A DNA stretch of 64,000 nt. It comes from a virus. Its lineage: Duplodnaviria; Caudoviricetes. Shown here one piece after another: positions 35,729-48,089 of the stretch. The translations under genes and the position numbers were made by a program. The first letter of the stretch is position 1, and each line of letters starts with the position of its first letter. The notes beneath the pieces were generated by a model. That model was not told where the DNA came from and made no database searches. It saw nothing but the letters and a program-made list of their open reading frames with translations. The stretch lies in IMG/VR virus record IMGVR_UViG_3300014205_000170, positions 384,001 through 448,000 of that record; one strand, 5' to 3'.

Positions 35729-35818
35729 ATGAGAACAAATACGTCACATAACCATTTTAATAAATCGACTTTTAGTAATAAAAGCCGAATGGGTGTGCTT
35801 TGTGCTCTTGAAAGATAA
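35729..35818 (+). CDS. Attenuator leader peptide 1 (MRTNTSHNHFNKSTFSNKSRMGVLCALER)
   Basis: 15 of codons 3-19 are T/N/S/H/F, the amino acids of the downstream tRNAs; contains antiterminator strand GGGTGTG. Confidence 0.8.
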   Translation: MRTNTSHNHFNKSTFSNKSRMGVLCALER

Positions 35819-35876
35819 TGAGAGTAAAAAAGATTTAAAACAACACACCCTGGCCGCTTAAACGTCAGGGTTTTTT
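35791..35876 (+). promoter_or_regulatory. Attenuator 1: antiterminator/terminator pair
   Basis: GGGTGTG (35791-97) pairs with CACACCC (35844-50), which overlaps terminator ACCCTGGC/GTCAGGGT + T tract (35847-35876). Confidence 0.8.
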
Positions 35877-42426: not shown

Positions 42427-43042
42427 AGAGTTTTTTACACAATATAATCAATCAAAAAATGACATTTACTTAACTAAGAAATTTGCGAATTTTTTAGTAT
42501 GTAGAAGTGATTTAGAATTGGCAAATAAAAAAACGACTTATGCAGGAAAACCAAGATATCAATATGAAAATATTTTTTTATATCCTTTTAGCATTGAGGT
42601 GGATTTTACTTTAAATGAACGTTATACTTTAAAAGAAAAAGAACGTTTATGTATTCTTACTAAAGGGAAAACTGTACATTTGATTGGAGTATATTCACAA
42701 CTTAAATGTAAGCATGGATGTCCTTCTAAAAGTTGTGCTGGTGGTGATTTTTTAACTGCCCAAAAAATTTTAAAAAAACAAAAAGGTCTTAGGGGTAATA
42801 TAGGAGATTTATTTTATTCTTTATCTGATAAAAAGTTATTTGATTTTTTTGAAACCAGAGGTTATAAATCAAAATTTAAGATTAAAACTCAACCGGATAG
42901 AATATCGTTTACAAAAAGAATTTATAATGATTCGCAAGCAAATAAAGTATATGATGATTTATATGATTTTGATACACAATACTCTCCTACTGGTAACTCC
43001 ACAAGGTTTGTTTTGATAGAAAAACAAGAAAAAGAGTTTTAA
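42419..43042 (+). CDS. Hypothetical protein
   Basis: ORF; ends with RFVLIEK. Confidence 0.55.
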   Translation: MSKEFFTQYNQSKNDIYLTKKFANFLVCRSDLELANKKTTYAGKPRYQYENIFLYPFSIEVDFTLNERYTLKEKERLCILTKGKTVHLIGVYSQLKCKHGCPSKSCAGGDFLTAQKILKKQKGLRGNIGDLFYSLSDKKLFDFFETRGYKSKFKIKTQPDRISFTKRIYNDSQANKVYDDLYDFDTQYSPTGNSTRFVLIEKQEKEF

Positions 43043-43098
43043 TTTTTAAAATTTATTTGCTTGATAATCAATTAATTAAAACAAATATTCAAAATTTA

Positions 43099-43131
43099 TT
43101 TGGTTTTAATGAAACATTCGTTATATCTTTG
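43099..43131 (+). promoter_or_regulatory. Bacteroidota sigma70-type promoter of leader 3 / tRNA array 3
   Basis: TTTG-N21-TATCTTTG. Confidence 0.7.
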
Positions 43132-43204
43132 CGTATAAGTAGGAAAGAAATTTTTTGAAAAATAAAAAATTCTTACTATTTAAAATAAATAAGAGAAATC
43201 TTCA

Positions 43205-43345
43205 ATGAAACAAAGGTTCACATATACAACAAAAACTTCAACTACTTGGCCGGTTATGCCGACAACAGTGGGGGCAATTTGTATTATTATGGCCGGCGAT
43301 TATAGCCGCGATAATAAGGGTGTGTTAAACCAAGGAGTTTCATGA
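43205..43345 (+). CDS. Attenuator leader peptide 3 (MKQRFTYTTKTSTTWPVMPTTVGAICIIMAGDYSRDNKGVLNQGVS)
   Basis: Codons 13-36 contain all 12 amino acids of the downstream array and only one other residue (Ser). Confidence 0.82.
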   Translation: MKQRFTYTTKTSTTWPVMPTTVGAICIIMAGDYSRDNKGVLNQGVS

Positions 43346-43410
43346 TGAATACATAAAACTTACGGAATTTAAAAATAACACACCCGGACTATAAAAAGTT
43401 CGGGTTTTTT
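43318..43410 (+). promoter_or_regulatory. Attenuator 3: antiterminator/terminator pair
   Basis: GGGTGTGTTA (43318-27) pairs perfectly with TAACACACCC (43376-85), which overlaps terminator ACCCGGACT/AGTTCGGGT + T tract. Confidence 0.85.
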
Positions 43411-43525
43411 ATTTTCCAAAAAATTAGTCAAGCAATGACTTAAAAGTTTGCAACGTTTTTTGACATATTGGTAACATTAAAAAGGTAATTAGGAATGGTT
43501 GTGAAATAATTCCTAATTACAAAAA

Positions 43526-43601
43526 GCGGAAGTAGTATAGTGCGTCATTATATTGCATTGCCAATGCAAAGATGGGAGTTCGATTCTCCTCTTCCGCTCC
43601 A
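43526..43601 (+). tRNA. tRNA-Gly(GCC)
   Basis: TTGCA-TTGCCAA-TGCAA; encoded CCA. Confidence 0.88.
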
Positions 43602-43604
43602 CAT

Positions 43605-43679
43605 GCCGTAGTAGCTCAGTTGGTTTAGAGCATTCGTTTCATACGCGAAGGGTCACAAGTTCGAGCCTTGTCTACGGTA
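43605..43679 (+). tRNA. tRNA-Met/Ile2(CAT)
   Basis: TTCGT-TTCATAC-GCGAA; identity (Met vs lysidine-Ile) unresolved. Confidence 0.8.
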
Positions 43680-43692
43680 CACTAAAAAATAT

Positions 43693-43782
43693 TGCGCGGT
43701 CGACTGGAGTTAGGCTACCAGCGGGGTCTCATAAGCCCTAACCAGAAATGGAACGTGAGTTCGAGTCTCACCTGCGCTTCCA
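43693..43782 (+). tRNA. tRNA(CAT), initiator-like, long variable arm
   Basis: 1:72 mismatch; GGGGT-CTCATAA-GCCCT; CCA. Confidence 0.75.
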
Positions 43783-43911
43783 ATTCGAAATTAAAAAGTT
43801 GTACAGCTTTTTAAAATTAGAAACCGTTGCTAGTCGGTATATAAAGAATGGTAGAAATACAGAGTAGATTAATTACCTACAAAATATTTTTGCAGCAACT
43901 AGCGCACATTT

Positions 43912-43985
43912 GGCCTTTTAGCTCAATTGCGAAGAGCATCTGTTTTACATGCAGAAGGTTGTCAGTTCGAGTCTGACAGAGGCTA
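43912..43985 (+). tRNA. tRNA-Val(TAC)
   Basis: TCTGT-TTTACAT-GCAGA. Confidence 0.88.
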
Positions 43986-43997
43986 CAAAAAATAAAT

Positions 43998-44072
43998 AGA
44001 CGCTTAGCTCAGTTGGTTTAGAGCATCGGTCTTACAAACCGAGGGTCACTGATTCGAATTCAGTAGTGTCTA
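43998..44072 (+). tRNA. tRNA-Val(TAC)
   Basis: TCGGT-CTTACAA-ACCGA. Confidence 0.9.
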
Positions 44073-44077
44073 CATAT

Positions 44078-44152
<75 letters not shown>

Positions 44153-44160
44153 ATTAAAAT

Positions 44161-44245
44161 ACACGGTTAGCCTAGTGGTCGATGGCATCAGTCTCCAAAA
44201 CTGACGAATTAAATTTCCGCGTGCGTTCGAATCGTACACCGTGTG
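44161..44245 (+). tRNA. tRNA-Trp(CCA) with long variable arm
   Basis: TCAGT-CTCCAAA-ACTGA; G73. Confidence 0.85.
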
Positions 44246-44257
44246 CAAAAACAAAAT

Positions 44258-44340
44258 GAGAGTTTATACCGTAGGGGTAGCGGGAATGCCTGTAGAGCAT
44301 TTATCTTTCGATTCGGGTGGTTCGACTCCATCAGCTCTCA
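44258..44340 (+). tRNA. tRNA-Tyr(GTA)
   Basis: AATGC-CTGTAGA-GCATT; variable arm. Confidence 0.82.
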
Positions 44341-44426
44341 CACTTTACAATCCTGCTTATTTTATCGTCCTGATAAAATAAGTCCAAAGAAAATCTTGGT
44401 AATAGGGTCCTTGAGGATTGTAATAC

Positions 44427-44500
44427 GCAGGTAACGCATAAGTGGTGGTGCACCAGACTTCCAATCTGGAATAGAGCCGGTTCGATACCGGTTACCTGCT
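44427..44500 (+). tRNA. tRNA-Gly(TCC)
   Basis: CCAGA-CTTCCAA-TCTGG; U73. Confidence 0.85.
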
Positions 44501-44750
44501 CTTTAAAATTGTAGATTTTGAATCTTCGGACAACTTGGAAAGACAAGTATAAAAAAAGAAAAAAAAATATGAAAAATTGAAATAATTAGCTGATTAAAAA
44601 TACATTAATAATTTTATCCTTAGTGTATATAATAAACAGTAGAAACTTAAAATGTCGTATCTACGAAGATGATTATGAAACTTCTGTTTACGATTTAAAT
44701 AATAACATTCGAAGAAGAATGTTGAAGACAAAAAAGTATTTGGAAATTAT

Positions 44751-44816
44751 GCCGGAATGTGACGCGTAGATACCTGTGCAGGTATCAAAATCGGGTGAAA
44801 CCGAGTTCTGGCACCA
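44751..44816 (+). ncRNA. Mini tRNA-like RNA ending in ACCA
   Basis: GCCGGAA/TTCTGGC-A-CCA; two internal hairpins; no D arm. Confidence 0.5.
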
Positions 44817-44820
44817 ATTA

Positions 44821-44894
44821 CGGGGTGTAGCTCAGTTGCGAAGAGCGCTCGGTTTGGAGCCGAGAGGTCGCAGGTTCAAGTCCTGTTACCCCGA
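44821..44894 (+). tRNA. tRNA-Pro(TGG)
   Basis: CTCGG-TTTGGAG-CCGAG. Confidence 0.9.
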
Positions 44895-44898
44895 CTAT

Positions 44899-44972
44899 CG
44901 AGATGTAGCTCAGTTGCGAAGAGCGCGTGCTTTGGGAGCATGAGGCCGCAGGTTCAAGTCCTGTCATCTCGA
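44899..44972 (+). tRNA. tRNA-Pro(TGG)
   Basis: CGTGC-TTTGGGA-GCATG. Confidence 0.9.
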
Positions 44973-45049
44973 CAAAAAGTTTTCGGAATAAAAAAACTTC
45001 CCAAGTAATTGGGTGCTTGTTGAGACAAGCAGCAAAAAGTCCGAGCTTT

Positions 45050-45124
45050 ACTGTCTTAGCTCAATTGGTTTAGAGCTTTTGCCTGATACGCAAAGGGTTG
45101 TTGGTTCGAGTCCAATAGACAGTA
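45050..45124 (+). tRNA. tRNA-Ile(GAT)
   Basis: TTTGC-CTGATAC-GCAAA. Confidence 0.88.
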
Positions 45125-45129
45125 CACAT

Positions 45130-45204
45130 AGTTTCGTAGCTCAATCGCGTTAGAGCACTACACTGATAATGTAGAGGTTGGCAGTTCGAATCTGCTCGAA
45201 ACTA
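45130..45204 (+). tRNA. tRNA-Ile(GAT)
   Basis: CTACA-CTGATAA-TGTAG. Confidence 0.9.
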
Positions 45205-45217
45205 CAAAAAATAAAAT

Positions 45218-45290
45218 GGTTCCGTGGTCTAATGGTTTAGGATACTTGACTGTCTATCATGGGGTGGGAGTTCGATTCTCCTCGGAACCG
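45218..45290 (+). tRNA. tRNA-Asp(GTC)
   Basis: TGA-CTGTCTA-TCA; G73. Confidence 0.82.
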
Positions 45291-45318
45291 CAAAACGTTG
45301 GAGAACGTAAAACTTAAT

Positions 45319-45393
45319 GGTATCGTAGTTCAGCTGCGTTAGAATGCTCCCCTGTCACGGGAGAGGTCGCCGGTTCGAGTCCGGTCGGTACCG
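45319..45393 (+). tRNA. tRNA-Asp(GTC)
   Basis: CTCCC-CTGTCAC-GGGAG. Confidence 0.92.
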
Positions 45394-45478
45394 CTTGGAA
45401 GCCGAATGTTGCAAAGCATTCTACCTAAAGTACACGGGGTGGTGAAAACCAGCTTCTGAACGTAGTACAAAAATAAAT

Positions 45479-45553
45479 GGGACCTTAGCTCAATTGGCTT
45501 AGAGCGCTTGATTTGCATTCAAGAGGTTGTGGATTCGAGTTCCACAGGCTCCA
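45479..45553 (+). tRNA. tRNA-Ala(TGC)
   Basis: CTTGA-TTTGCAT-TCAAG; G3:U70. Confidence 0.88.
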
Positions 45554-45558
45554 CAAAC

Positions 45559-45619
45559 GGGGGATATGGCAAAGATGCATCGCCAGAAGTTACGGTTAAT
45601 TCTGTAGCATCCTCCACCA
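45559..45619 (+). ncRNA. Mini tRNA-like RNA ending in ACCA
   Basis: GGGGGAT/ATCCTCC-A-CCA (G3:U wobble); hairpins TGGC/GCCA and CAGAA/TTCTG. Confidence 0.5.
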
Positions 45620-45628
45620 ACTAAAAAT

Positions 45629-45701
45629 GGGGTGTCATGTACCAAGGCTGGCGAATGTGCTTTGCAAGCACGTTGGGTGAGTTCAATTCTCATACGCTCC
45701 A
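45629..45701 (+). tRNA. tRNA-Ala(TGC), atypical D arm
   Basis: TGTGC-TTTGCAA-GCACG; G3:U70. Confidence 0.78.
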
Positions 45702-45716
45702 CAAAAATTAAAGAAT

Positions 45717-45801
45717 GCCAATATCGCATAGTGGTCGATTGCACCTGATTTGTAATCAGGAACTGAATAAGACAGCGGCGGTTCGAATCCGTCTATTGGC
45801 T
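45717..45801 (+). tRNA. tRNA-Thr(TGT) with long variable arm
   Basis: CCTGA-TTTGTAA-TCAGG. Confidence 0.85.
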
Positions 45802-45803
45802 CA

Positions 45804-46050
45804 AAAAAAGTAAAACAAAGGATTCATCGCTGATTATTATTAATTTAATTAGAGGAAGTTCGCGACTGCAAAACCTAATGTAGGAGGGGGTCCTGAAAAC
45901 CGCCATTTGTACTACAGAAGCAGCAACCTAAACAGCTTAAGATTGTCGGTTTATCTATGAGAGCGGGTTAGGGCAGCCATTAGGCCATTGGAAAATGAGA
46001 TAAATGATGAGTTAAAACAAAATCGCGGCTACGCTTATTTTACTTTTTTT
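45804..46050 (+). ncRNA. rnpB: Compact RNase P RNA
   Basis: CR-I GAGGAAGTTCGCGA and CR-V AACAAAATCGCGGCTA form P4 with a bulged U; P1 AAAAGTAAAA/TTTTACTTTT; P2 ATTCATC/GATGAGT; ACAGAA; AGATAAATGAT. Confidence 0.8.
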
Positions 46051-46095
46051 ATTTTAATATTATATTCGCCTATAGGTTAAGATAGAAAAAAAAAC

Positions 46096-46806
46096 ATGAA
46101 ATATTATGTATATATGTTATTTGATTTAGAAAATCCTTTTTATATTGGTAAAGGAACAAAAAATAGAATGTACGAACATTATAAAAGAGCTACAAAAACA
46201 AAAATAAAATCTCCTGTTTTAGATAAAATTAGAAATATCATTTTAAATAATAGACAAGTGATTTATAAAAAAATTTTTGAGTCTGATATAGAATCAAATG
46301 TTATAAAAAAAGAAATAAATACTATTTTAGAAATTGGTAGAAGAGATTTAAAAACCGGACCACTGTTGAATTTAACAGATGGTGGCGAGGGAGTAACCAA
46401 TTACATTTGGTCAAAAAAACATAAAAAAAATCTTAGTAAATCTATTAAAAAAGCAATAAAAGAAGGAAGATATAATCCTCCAGGAAATATAATTTTAAGA
46501 GAAGAAAAATACAAAAAAACAATGTCTAAAAAAATACAGGAATATTGGAATAGCGAAGAAGGTAAAAAGCATAAAAAAAGAATTTCTGTAAAAAACAAAA
46601 AAAAATTAGATGATGGAAAACGAGTACTATCAAAAAAGGCCAGACAAAAAATGAGAGAATCAGCTTTAAGAACTAATAAAATAAAAAAACAAAAATTAAA
46701 ATGGTCCCGTGGCCGAGGGGAGACGAAAGTCGATAGGCTCAGTTCTGCAAAAACTGCCACATTTGTTCAAATCAAATCGGGACCTCAACAAAATATGCCC
46801 TCGTAG
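46096..46806 (+). CDS. GIY-YIG homing endonuclease (free-standing, Seg/LEM-3-like)
   Basis: YYVYML...PFYIGKG...R...H; E...I..IGRRD..TGPLLNLTDGGEG; basic C-terminal repeats. Confidence 0.85.
   Translation: MKYYVYMLFDLENPFYIGKGTKNRMYEHYKRATKTKIKSPVLDKIRNIILNNRQVIYKKIFESDIESNVIKKEINTILEIGRRDLKTGPLLNLTDGGEGVTNYIWSKKHKKNLSKSIKKAIKEGRYNPPGNIILREEKYKKTMSKKIQEYWNSEEGKKHKKRISVKNKKKLDDGKRVLSKKARQKMRESALRTNKIKKQKLKWSRGRGETKVDRLSSAKTATFVQIKSGPQQNMPS
46703..46785 (+). tRNA. tRNA-Cys(GCA) with D-loop hairpin insertion
   Basis: CAGTT-CTGCAAA-AACTG; U73; GAC-GAAA-GTC in D loop. Confidence 0.78.
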
Positions 46807-46869
46807 TTCAACGGATTAGAATACTAAACTACGGATTTAGAGATGGGGATTCGAATTCCTCCGAGGGTA
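46797..46869 (+). tRNA. tRNA-Arg(ACG)
   Basis: CTAAA-CTACGGA-TTTAG. Confidence 0.88.
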
Positions 46870-46874
46870 CAAAA

Positions 46875-46970
46875 ACAGAAATAGTTCAGTTGGTAAAACA
46901 CCCGAATCCAAGGGACCAGACCAAGTATAAACAACTTGAAGATTCGCAGGTTCGATTCCTGCTTTCTGTT
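46875..46970 (+). ncRNA. tRNA-like RNA with remodelled anticodon region
   Basis: ACAGAAA/TTTCTGT; TAGTTCAGTTGGTA D arm; GCAGG-TTCGATT-CCTGC; no canonical anticodon arm. Confidence 0.55.
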
Positions 46971-46978
46971 CTTAAAAT

Positions 46979-47051
46979 GTCCTCATAGTTCAATGGAGAA
47001 GAGCGTTCGTTTCCTAAACGAAAAATCCAGGTTCGAATCCCGGTGAGGATA
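46979..47051 (+). tRNA. tRNA-Arg(CCT)
   Basis: TTCGT-TTCCTAA-ACGAA. Confidence 0.88.
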
Positions 47052-47057
47052 CAATTG

Positions 47058-47525
47058 TTAGGTAAGATTTCTAAAAACAATTTTATTTCCCTCTCCAATT
47101 TCTCGGATAATTCCTTTCACTTTAATGTTATCAATATTTTCCCACTCTGTAATATCTTTACTTGCTGCTGGTGTTGAGTTTTTATGAAATGCTAATGTAA
47201 TATGTGGCATATCGTTTACTGAATAATATCCAAATGTTTCTACTGCAATTGCATTAGCAGATTTACCAATCGCCTTTATAATTAAAGTAACTTCTTTATT
47301 TAAGTCTCCTCTTAAATATAAACTTTCCGGAAATTCTCCGGTTTTTATTGTCATGTGAAAATTATGCGGTTTACGCCAACCTTGATTAATAGGAACGTAT
47401 TGCTGAACCAATTTTTCAATCTTAGCAATTTCAGAAGGGTCTTCAATAACCACACCAGAATAGATTACGTTCTGCTTTAGGCTTTCCATAATCATTTTCC
47501 TCACTATCTTTCTTAGATTGCTCAT
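47058..47525 (-). CDS. 2H phosphoesterase (2',3'-cyclic phosphodiesterase, tRNA-ligase CPD-like)
   Basis: Two HxT motifs: HMTI and HITL. Confidence 0.75.
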   Translation of the reverse strand: MSNLRKIVRKMIMESLKQNVIYSGVVIEDPSEIAKIEKLVQQYVPINQGWRKPHNFHMTIKTGEFPESLYLRGDLNKEVTLIIKAIGKSANAIAVETFGYYSVNDMPHITLAFHKNSTPAASKDITEWENIDNIKVKGIIREIGEGNKIVFRNLT

Positions 47526-47576
47526 ATTGTATTAAATAGGGTTTAAAAGCATCTTTTTAGAGCTATTTATCTTCAA

Positions 47577-48089
47577 ATGAAAAACATTCGAAAAGTTATA
47601 AGAAAAGAACTGTTTAAGCTTTTGGAAAATTATCCAGCAAGTACAGTTAATGACCCATCTGCTCCATGGAATCAGTCAGACCCAAAATTTTTAGAACCAA
47701 AAGTTCCAGGTAGTAATCTTTTTGTAGCAATTTATTTTAACAATGAAATTACTATTCTTAAAAATACACAAGATAATTCAAAATGGTTTTTTTACAATGA
47801 TTCAGTTGAAAAAAATGATTACTTACCATATTCCGGAGCAGAGGATGAAAGTGTTTTTTTAGGTAAAGATGATGATGGACCAATATTCGACGAAAAATAT
47901 AATTGGGAATTGAATGGTCCAATAGTTCAAGATTATATTAATGATAATTTAGAAAATTTAAGCCAAGGCGAGGGAGTAAAAGGGTATGAAGATGGAATAG
48001 ACCTTGTTAAAATAGATGAGCCTCTTATTGTAGCCTTAACTGGTTTATACCGTGACCCAAAATTACAAGAAGTTTTATTAAAGGCATAA
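47577..48089 (+). CDS. Hypothetical head-type protein
   Basis: IRKVIRKE..LLE leader; YP....DPSAPWNQ motif. Confidence 0.6.
   Translation: MKNIRKVIRKELFKLLENYPASTVNDPSAPWNQSDPKFLEPKVPGSNLFVAIYFNNEITILKNTQDNSKWFFYNDSVEKNDYLPYSGAEDESVFLGKDDDGPIFDEKYNWELNGPIVQDYINDNLENLSQGEGVKGYEDGIDLVKIDEPLIVALTGLYRDPKLQEVLLKA

Follow-up and report, generated by a model that had tools for sequence, protein, structure and literature searches.

A probable leader-peptide transcription attenuator in front of a phage tRNA array

Phage tRNA genes are usually regarded as passively expressed cargo. The locus described here raises the question of whether a phage can release a tRNA array on demand through leader-peptide attenuation, a mechanism that is itself textbook knowledge (trp, his). 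The locus lies in a 64,000-nucleotide stretch of DNA (the window, i.e., the whole stretch that was analyzed), which corresponds to bases 384001 to 448000 of a 518,809-bp IMG/VR phage genome with direct terminal repeats and a G+C content of ~29%. Among cultured phages, DNA relatives yielded matches of tRNA size only. ARAGORN called 51 tRNA genes genome-wide, clustered in plus-strand blocks, and a preliminary description had proposed that a leader peptide gates one of these blocks (attenuator 3). We consider it likely that a phage tRNA operon is gated here by a leader-peptide transcription attenuator, with feedback on tRNA supply. The reading is directly supported by the anatomy of the locus, by a conserved reading frame, by a leader composition that matches the array and shifts with it, and by the co-variation of the pairing arms. 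The proposed 12 amino acids, isoacceptor-level matching, and RNase P RNA did not hold up as they were written.

The locus begins with a promoter at 43099 to 43131 on the plus strand, which, from the consensus as generally known, we take to be of the Bacteroidota type. It comprises a −33 TTTG (43099 to 43102), a 21-nucleotide spacer, and the −7 box TATCTTTG (43124 to 43131), which is unchanged across all orthologs. The pattern TTTG-N17-23-TAnnTTTG has a single match over positions 43099 to 47100, namely, this leader promoter, while the window as a whole contains 16 promoter motifs (7.7 expected). A 5′ untranslated region (UTR) follows (43136 to 43204, plus strand), with an A/U hairpin at ~43140 to 43178 (−5.0 kcal/mol) and a conserved start context, and leads into an ORF of 46 codons plus TGA (43205 to 43345, plus strand), whose sensor part spans approximately codons 4 to 34. 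The arrangement of TTTG-N21-box promoter and 46-amino-acid ORF in the preliminary description is thereby confirmed. As in leader-peptide attenuators, the short ORF stands upstream of the array and is enriched in the amino acids that the array serves, and an intrinsic terminator lies between the leader and the regulated genes. This terminator (43382 to 43415, plus strand; −12.9 kcal/mol) has a 9-bp stem with five G-C pairs (arms 43382 to 43390 and 43397 to 43405), a 6-nucleotide loop, and a U-rich tail, UUUUUAUUUU, and is invariant in the orthologs.

The distance from the terminator to the first tRNA of the array is 120 nucleotides. This interval (43421 to 43520, plus strand) holds a 55-nucleotide box (43421 to 43475) that all orthologs share and that occurs once in the genome, and a hairpin at 43485 to 43520. 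The 12-bp hairpin varies in sequence between phages while its pairing is kept, and it is absent in one ortholog (L003). Box and hairpin together could be a processing site or an unrecognized promoter. No promoter consensus was found inside the array or past the terminator, and the gap between terminator and first tRNA has neither a Bacteroidota consensus nor sigma-70 spacing that is conserved across orthologs; an atypical promoter could still lie there. We infer that the leader promoter is the one that serves the array. A separate observation concerns the end of the leader, where an ATG overlaps the stop codon (ATGA, 43342; 43342 to 43356, plus strand) and opens a mini-ORF of 2 to 4 codons in all orthologs, preceded in the window by AAGGAG. 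We dropped it as a meaningful element, since 2 to 4 codons are the chance expectation in A/T-rich sequence and the overlap is probably fortuitous.

The array that would be gated (43526 to 47052, plus strand) contains 19 tRNA genes called by ARAGORN, covering 11 amino acids (Gly, Met, Val, Trp, Tyr, Pro, Ile, Asp, Ala, Thr, and Arg), and two tRNA-like genes. The order of the called genes is Gly(gcc), Met, Val ×2, Met, Trp, Tyr, Gly(tcc), Pro ×2, Ile ×2, Asp ×2, Ala ×2, Thr(tgt), Arg(acg), and Arg(cct). The first tRNA-like gene (43693 to 43785, plus strand) combines a CAT-type anticodon loop with a long variable arm and was called by neither ARAGORN nor Rfam; its site corresponds to a second tRNA-Met(cat) in related arrays. 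The second (46875 to 46970, plus strand), located between the two tRNA-Arg genes, scores 41.8 bits in Rfam and carries a long insert; at the matching place, L005 and L027 have, according to ARAGORN, a tRNA whose anticodon has four bases (aggg). Relaxed ARAGORN settings gave no believable identity for either gene, and the twelfth amino acid of the preliminary description can therefore not be placed. The array is also interrupted by an ORF resembling GIY-YIG endonucleases (46096 to 46806, plus strand; Pfam PF22945, E = 2.7 × 10−8), and just past it, on the opposite strand, lies a weakly LigT-like phosphoesterase ORF (47058 to 47525, minus strand). Beyond the window, ARAGORN reported three tRNAs with irregular anticodon loops (agaa, agaa, and ca) at genome positions 4818, 17799, and 37497.

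The preliminary description had suggested that the gated unit also includes the RNase P RNA. An element of ~240 nucleotides (45810 to 46047, plus strand) matches the class A model RF00010 over its full length, with large deletions, at 32.2 bits (E = 1.1 × 10−8), below the gathering threshold of 100, in a search limited to 45790 to 46100 (311 nucleotides). Wider Rfam searches, over the 64 kb and over 43000 to 47600, missed it. Five relatives retain the element after tRNA-Thr(tgt), and its P4 strands, which in class A carry the conserved GAGGAA and ACAnAA, are invariant except for one compensatory change (G-C to A-U) in L002, whose copy has no Rfam match at E ≤ 1. With 32 bits against 100 and the unmatched L002 copy, the suggestion is not supported as phrased. 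On the sequence, the element is probably RNase P-like and cotranscribed with the array.

How closely does the leader mirror this array? Codons 13 to 36 (43241 to 43312) were said to contain all 12 amino acids of the array and none of K, E, N, L, or F. The second half of this statement was borne out by reading the sequence, as K, E, N, L, F, H, and Q are all absent. The calculation that had been proposed alongside it gives P ≈ 1.4 × 10−5, from proteome frequencies, for 24 residues without K, E, N, L, and F, which together make up 37% of the proteome (Leu 8.5%, Phe 5.2%). The first half stood in part: the segment holds 13 kinds of residue, including all 11 amino acids that ARAGORN assigns to the array, and the other two, Cys (TGT) and Ser (AGC), have no cognate tRNA in the array. 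Likewise, the AGG codon assigned to this segment exists, but as codon 4, outside codons 13 to 36. Among 1,336 ATG-initiated ORFs of 30 to 80 amino acids in the 519-kb genome, three include 24 consecutive residues among which all 11 amino acids occur, and the leader ORF alone combines full coverage with 22 of the 24 residues in the set. In long ORFs, 4 of 105,947 stretches of 24 residues reach a coverage of 10 with 22 in the set. Over the whole leader ORF, 32 of 45 residues belong to the array set (P = 0.003), and residues outside it include K2, Q3, F5, K10, S12, C26, and S34. As a side observation, the leader ORFs of the window and of two distant phages (G001 and G003) mostly contain one or two Cys codons ahead of arrays that lack tRNA-Cys; this applies to all four G001 leaders. 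The TGT codon is invariant among the attenuator 3 orthologs, of which only L003 has an array ending in tRNA-Cys(gca).

This composition could also be the side effect of a transmembrane-like segment. The ORF would then encode a small hydrophobic membrane microprotein followed by an ordinary constitutive terminator, and the tRNAs would be transcribed from a start farther downstream. Codons 15 to 31 are indeed hydrophobic or small (W, P, V, M, G, A, I, and C), and the conserved box after the terminator could conceal a promoter. A hydrophobic stretch without Leu or Phe would nevertheless be odd in this proteome, and the sister leaders described below (poly-Gln, poly-Lys, and Ser/Arg rich) are not membrane-like. 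The explanation also has to contend with an arm complementary to the terminator that sits within the end of the ORF and co-varies, as well as with the lack of a consensus promoter past the terminator. We regard a membrane microprotein as very unlikely.

To find orthologs, we searched IMG/VR and JGI metagenomes with a 21-nucleotide anchor from the conserved box 3′ of the terminator, outside the ORF, and obtained six distinct loci whose upstream sequence was available (the window, L002, L003, L005, L025, and L027). The ATG with the same start context, the frame, and the TGA are kept in all six. Indels in the ORF, of which there are at least four, are all multiples of three; those in the UTR and the antiterminator loop have other lengths. 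Ten codon variants are synonymous, among them one Ser change from TCA to AGT that requires three base changes. Between the window and L002, a neighboring protein is 43% identical and the leader region 85%. In the variable part of the leader, 16 of 19 replacement residues fall within the 11-residue set (10.4 expected from single-base neighbors), Leu and Phe do not occur among the 19, and each ortholog leader retains the full set of 11 array amino acids. The start, frame, stop, in-frame indels, and synonymous variants show selection on the leader as a reading frame, as in leader-peptide attenuators. The preliminary description had named as adverse evidence homologous loci that keep the RNA structure and lose the frame; the six loci keep both, which favors translation of the leader.

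The same loci bear on whether the open frame is incidental and the leader an RNA-only switch, either T-box-like or bound by a protein. Codons 31 to 41 and both antiterminator arms are nucleotide invariant across orthologs, and the RNA fold is more stable than those of shuffled sequences (z = −3.98), as such a switch would predict. Because of this invariance, the amino acid content of codons 31 to 41 may be a by-product of RNA constraint. The survival of the frame through at least four indels of 3n length, next to indels of other lengths outside the ORF, and the ten synonymous variants, including TCA to AGT, are at odds with an incidental frame. Moreover, the T-box model (RF00230) had no match at the gathering score over the 64 kb, neither it nor any other cis-regulatory family matched at E ≤ 1 over 43000 to 47600, and a single RNA reading 11 tRNA identities would be implausible. 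Hence, we find an RNA-only switch scarcely credible and return to a translated leader.

Since the arrays of the close orthologs are nearly the same, any co-variation of leader and array has to come from distant homologs. In L003, the leader retains Trp, Tyr, and Arg codons for which ARAGORN calls no tRNA in the array behind it. Within the genome, every larger tRNA block is preceded by a matching short ORF and a terminator: seven successive Gln codons precede four tRNA-Gln genes, five Lys codons precede five tRNA-Lys genes, and a leader containing T, N, S, H, and F stands before Phe, Ser, Asn, His, and Thr tRNAs. A comparison of leader-to-array enrichment scores between five leaders and five arrays placed the actual pairing first among the 120 permutations.

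Two distant phages, G001 (372 kb) and G003, were reached via the promoter/UTR pattern and have their tRNAs grouped differently. The homologous attenuator of G001 precedes Asp, Gly, Tyr, Met, Pro, and Ala tRNAs, and its 23-codon leader consists of G, Y, P, A, D, and M, with C and T in addition; that of G003 precedes Ala, Pro, Asp, Tyr, Ser, and Gly tRNAs, and its leader consists of G, D, A, M, Y, P, and S. Both sensors are free of Val, Trp, Arg, and Ile, and only the window-type leader and array have them. In G001, tRNA-Trp belongs to a Ser/Arg block with the leader W, S, S, R, R, R, S, S, S, R, and tRNA-Val to a Gln/Phe/Arg(acg) block with many Q, F, and V residues in its leader. Judged from these sequences, the shift of the leader with array content in G001 and G003 is the strongest evidence that leaders match their arrays.

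Alternatively, the leader might control the terminator as a general gauge of translation speed or amino acid supply, and any slowing, whether by global starvation, host shut-off, or a ribosome-targeting defense, would then open the array. Its 11 to 13 residue kinds sample more than half of the code, it contains Lys, Gln, Phe, Ser, and Cys codons without a corresponding tRNA in the array, and the occlusion logic laid out below does not depend on the position of the stall. Against such a gauge stand the narrow leaders of the other blocks (seven Gln, five Lys, or Ser/Arg/Trp), the way in which G001 and G003 leader content follows the regrouped tRNAs, and the exclusion of the abundant Leu, Glu, Asn, Phe, and Lys from codons 13 to 36, together with the lack of Leu and Phe among the replacements. 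We consider a general gauge unlikely, and a leader matched to the tRNAs that it would control is the reading followed below.

We then asked how such a leader would be coupled to the terminator. The 5′ arm of an antiterminator (43318 to 43327, plus strand) occupies leader codons 38 to 41 and pairs perfectly over 10 bp with a 3′ arm (43376 to 43385, plus strand) whose last 4 nucleotides (ACCC) are the foot of the terminator stem. The claim of a perfect 10-bp antiterminator overlapping a 9-bp terminator was thus correct, with an overlap of 4 nucleotides. The duplex is more stable than those of shuffled sequences (−17.2 versus −9.0 ± 2.1 kcal/mol), and the leader stop codon sits within the apical part of the antiterminator hairpin. 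Because only 4 nucleotides overlap, the full terminator is compatible with a 6-bp remnant of the antiterminator; the foot of a terminator stem beside the U-tract provides the base pairs on which intrinsic termination depends. Over 43318 to 43405, the antiterminator state has an energy of −22.9 kcal/mol and the terminator state −21.3 kcal/mol, and this near equality fits the need of a switch. Transcription produces the antiterminator 3′ arm ahead of its terminator counterpart, which should give a free 5′ arm the kinetic advantage.

In 8 of 10 attenuators tested from the window genome, G001, and G003, the segment most complementary to the terminator 5′ arm falls within the last 4 to 9 leader codons, and in 6 of the 10 it beats shuffled sequences at P ≤ 0.05. 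The arms co-vary, because the complement sequences differ between attenuators while staying complementary. A mutually exclusive antiterminator with co-variation in the G001 and G003 homologs is likewise a feature of leader-peptide attenuators, though here the overlap is 4 nucleotides. Candidates for a trp-like 1:2 anti-antiterminator were limited to weak ACA/UGU pairings of 4 to 6 bp, which were not convincing; the ACA-rich codons 5 to 9 pair weakly with the antiterminator arm, without co-variation support. An additional hairpin inside the ORF (codons 27 to 38; 43285 to 43316, plus strand; −11.8 kcal/mol) has a nucleotide-invariant 3′ strand and is retained in the RNAalifold consensus of the six orthologs. 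In the folding models, it is possibly an RNA polymerase pause or timing hairpin; neither this role nor that of an anti-antiterminator has co-variation support.

The ribosome was modeled by masking 32 nucleotides around each A-site codon and computing a partition-function fold. With the ribosome at codons 36 to 46, the terminator had a probability of 0.95; at codon 34 or earlier, the antiterminator was allowed, with outcomes for codons 14 to 32 varying with the length of RNA folded. The fold model, the energies, and the placement of the arm favor a reading in which fast decoding stops transcription and an upstream wait opens the array. Transcription would start at the Bacteroidota-type promoter, and a ribosome would translate the 46-codon leader. 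If decoding were fast, the ribosome at codons 36 to 46 and the stop codon would cover the antiterminator 5′ arm and the inner hairpin; with the arm covered, the terminator (43382 to 43405) would form, and transcription would end ahead of the tRNAs. If the ribosome waited at an upstream sensor codon (Thr, Tyr, Trp, Pro, Val, Met, Gly, Ala, Ile, Asp, or Arg-AGG), the arm would stay free and pair with 43376 to 43385 once that segment was made, which would deprive the terminator stem of the four base pairs at its foot. The polymerase would then read into ~20 tRNAs for the same amino acids and the RNase P-like RNA. In logical terms, the leader would be an OR gate with ~11 amino acid inputs, and its loop would close on tRNA supply.

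The preliminary description went further and held that the leader codons match the array down to isoacceptors. For Arg, the sole informative case, there is some agreement. The window leader has AGG and CGC before tRNA-Arg(cct, acg) and avoids AGA, which accounts for 64% of Arg codons. In G001, the leader before Arg(tct, cct) has only AGR codons (four), and that before Arg(acg) only CGY codons (two). Against the claim, the L005 and L025 leaders contain an extra AGA, and no tRNA-Arg(tct) was called in their arrays. In addition, the CGC codon lies in the nucleotide-invariant hairpin, 8 nucleotides before the antiterminator arm, and because of this short distance a stall at CGC would block rather than free the arm; codons 35 and 36 (CGC and GAT) are both too near the arm to induce. 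Leader codons are rarer and more often G/C ending than expected (P = 0.015), which RNA structure could explain equally well. We put forward only tentatively, as possible rather than probable, a fuller scheme in which the genetic code is split among approximately five gated tRNA regulons and attenuator 3 is an 11-input OR gate that opens ~20 tRNAs and the RNase P-like RNA when any one of its tRNA species is scarce or damaged, with Arg resolved at the isoacceptor level (AGG versus CGN). Under this scheme, tRNAs could be replaced on demand, for example, when host defenses cut or deplete particular ones.

A further proposal was that attenuator 3 shares its origin with attenuator 1, which precedes the first tRNA array and has a paralogous antiterminator core, GGGTGTG/CACACCC (35791 to 35850, plus strand). 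This pair of motifs is present before arrays 1 and 3 only, and none of 100 shuffled sequences produced one. In one relative (L003/L004), the orthologs of attenuators 3 and 1 have nearly the same promoter, UTR, and terminator, and the ORF body alone differs. The common origin is thus borne out because promoter, 5′ UTR, and terminator are shared in this relative. By sequence comparison, attenuators 1 and 3 appear as a common chassis with exchanged sensors.

How does this locus compare with known systems? The enterobacterial leaders of ilvGMEDA, ilvBN, and thr are multivalent attenuators that respond to two or three amino acids and control biosynthetic enzymes. As in these, codons for several amino acids in a short leader would set the choice between antiterminator and terminator. 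Unlike them, the phage leader samples ~11 amino acids and would control tRNA genes. Its ORF contains the antiterminator 5′ arm, 5 to 9 codons ahead of the stop rather than after it, and a clear 1:2 anti-antiterminator was not found. With hisL, trpL, pheL, and pheM, it would share the relief of termination by stalling at hungry codons, and pheM, the leader of pheST (phenylalanyl-tRNA synthetase), applies the same logic to a gene of the translation apparatus. These four leaders sense a single amino acid through a run of identical codons, to which the seven-Gln and five-Lys leaders of the phage are closer than attenuator 3; to our knowledge, none of them controls a tRNA gene. An attenuator-like leader of E. 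coli tRNA-Phe genes, considered as a possible precedent, was discarded, as pheV in K-12 has a promoter of 105 nucleotides and no leader ORF. The described leader-peptide attenuators that we know of all regulate biosynthesis or synthetase genes, whereas the targets of attenuator 3 are tRNAs and an RNase P-like RNA. T-box riboswitches resemble the locus in sensing the state of tRNA and in placing a terminator/antiterminator switch before translation-related genes; unlike the phage leader, they are RNA only, read one specifier codon, and have conserved Stem I and T-box motifs. In full-text searches of the literature, we found no account of leader-peptide attenuation applied in phages to tRNA genes with 11 inputs.

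If the favored reading is true, the virus monitors the speed of decoding at individual codons and replenishes precisely the tRNAs that are scarce, forming a closed feedback loop on the translation machinery itself. Attenuation would be extended to RNA genes and to viruses of Bacteroidota, with a valency of ~11 compared with three in ilv. The locus would also offer a testable handle on why giant phages carry tRNA arrays, be it codon-usage mismatch, host shut-off, or tRNA-cutting defenses, and leaders of this kind would be compact natural sensors of single-tRNA availability.

Finally, the distant phage G001 (L032 to L035) encodes on its reverse strand tRNAs with CTA and TTA anticodons, i.e., of the amber and ochre suppressor types, one of which lies within an Asn/His/Thr/Lys block. 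These tRNAs hint at stop-codon recoding in G001.
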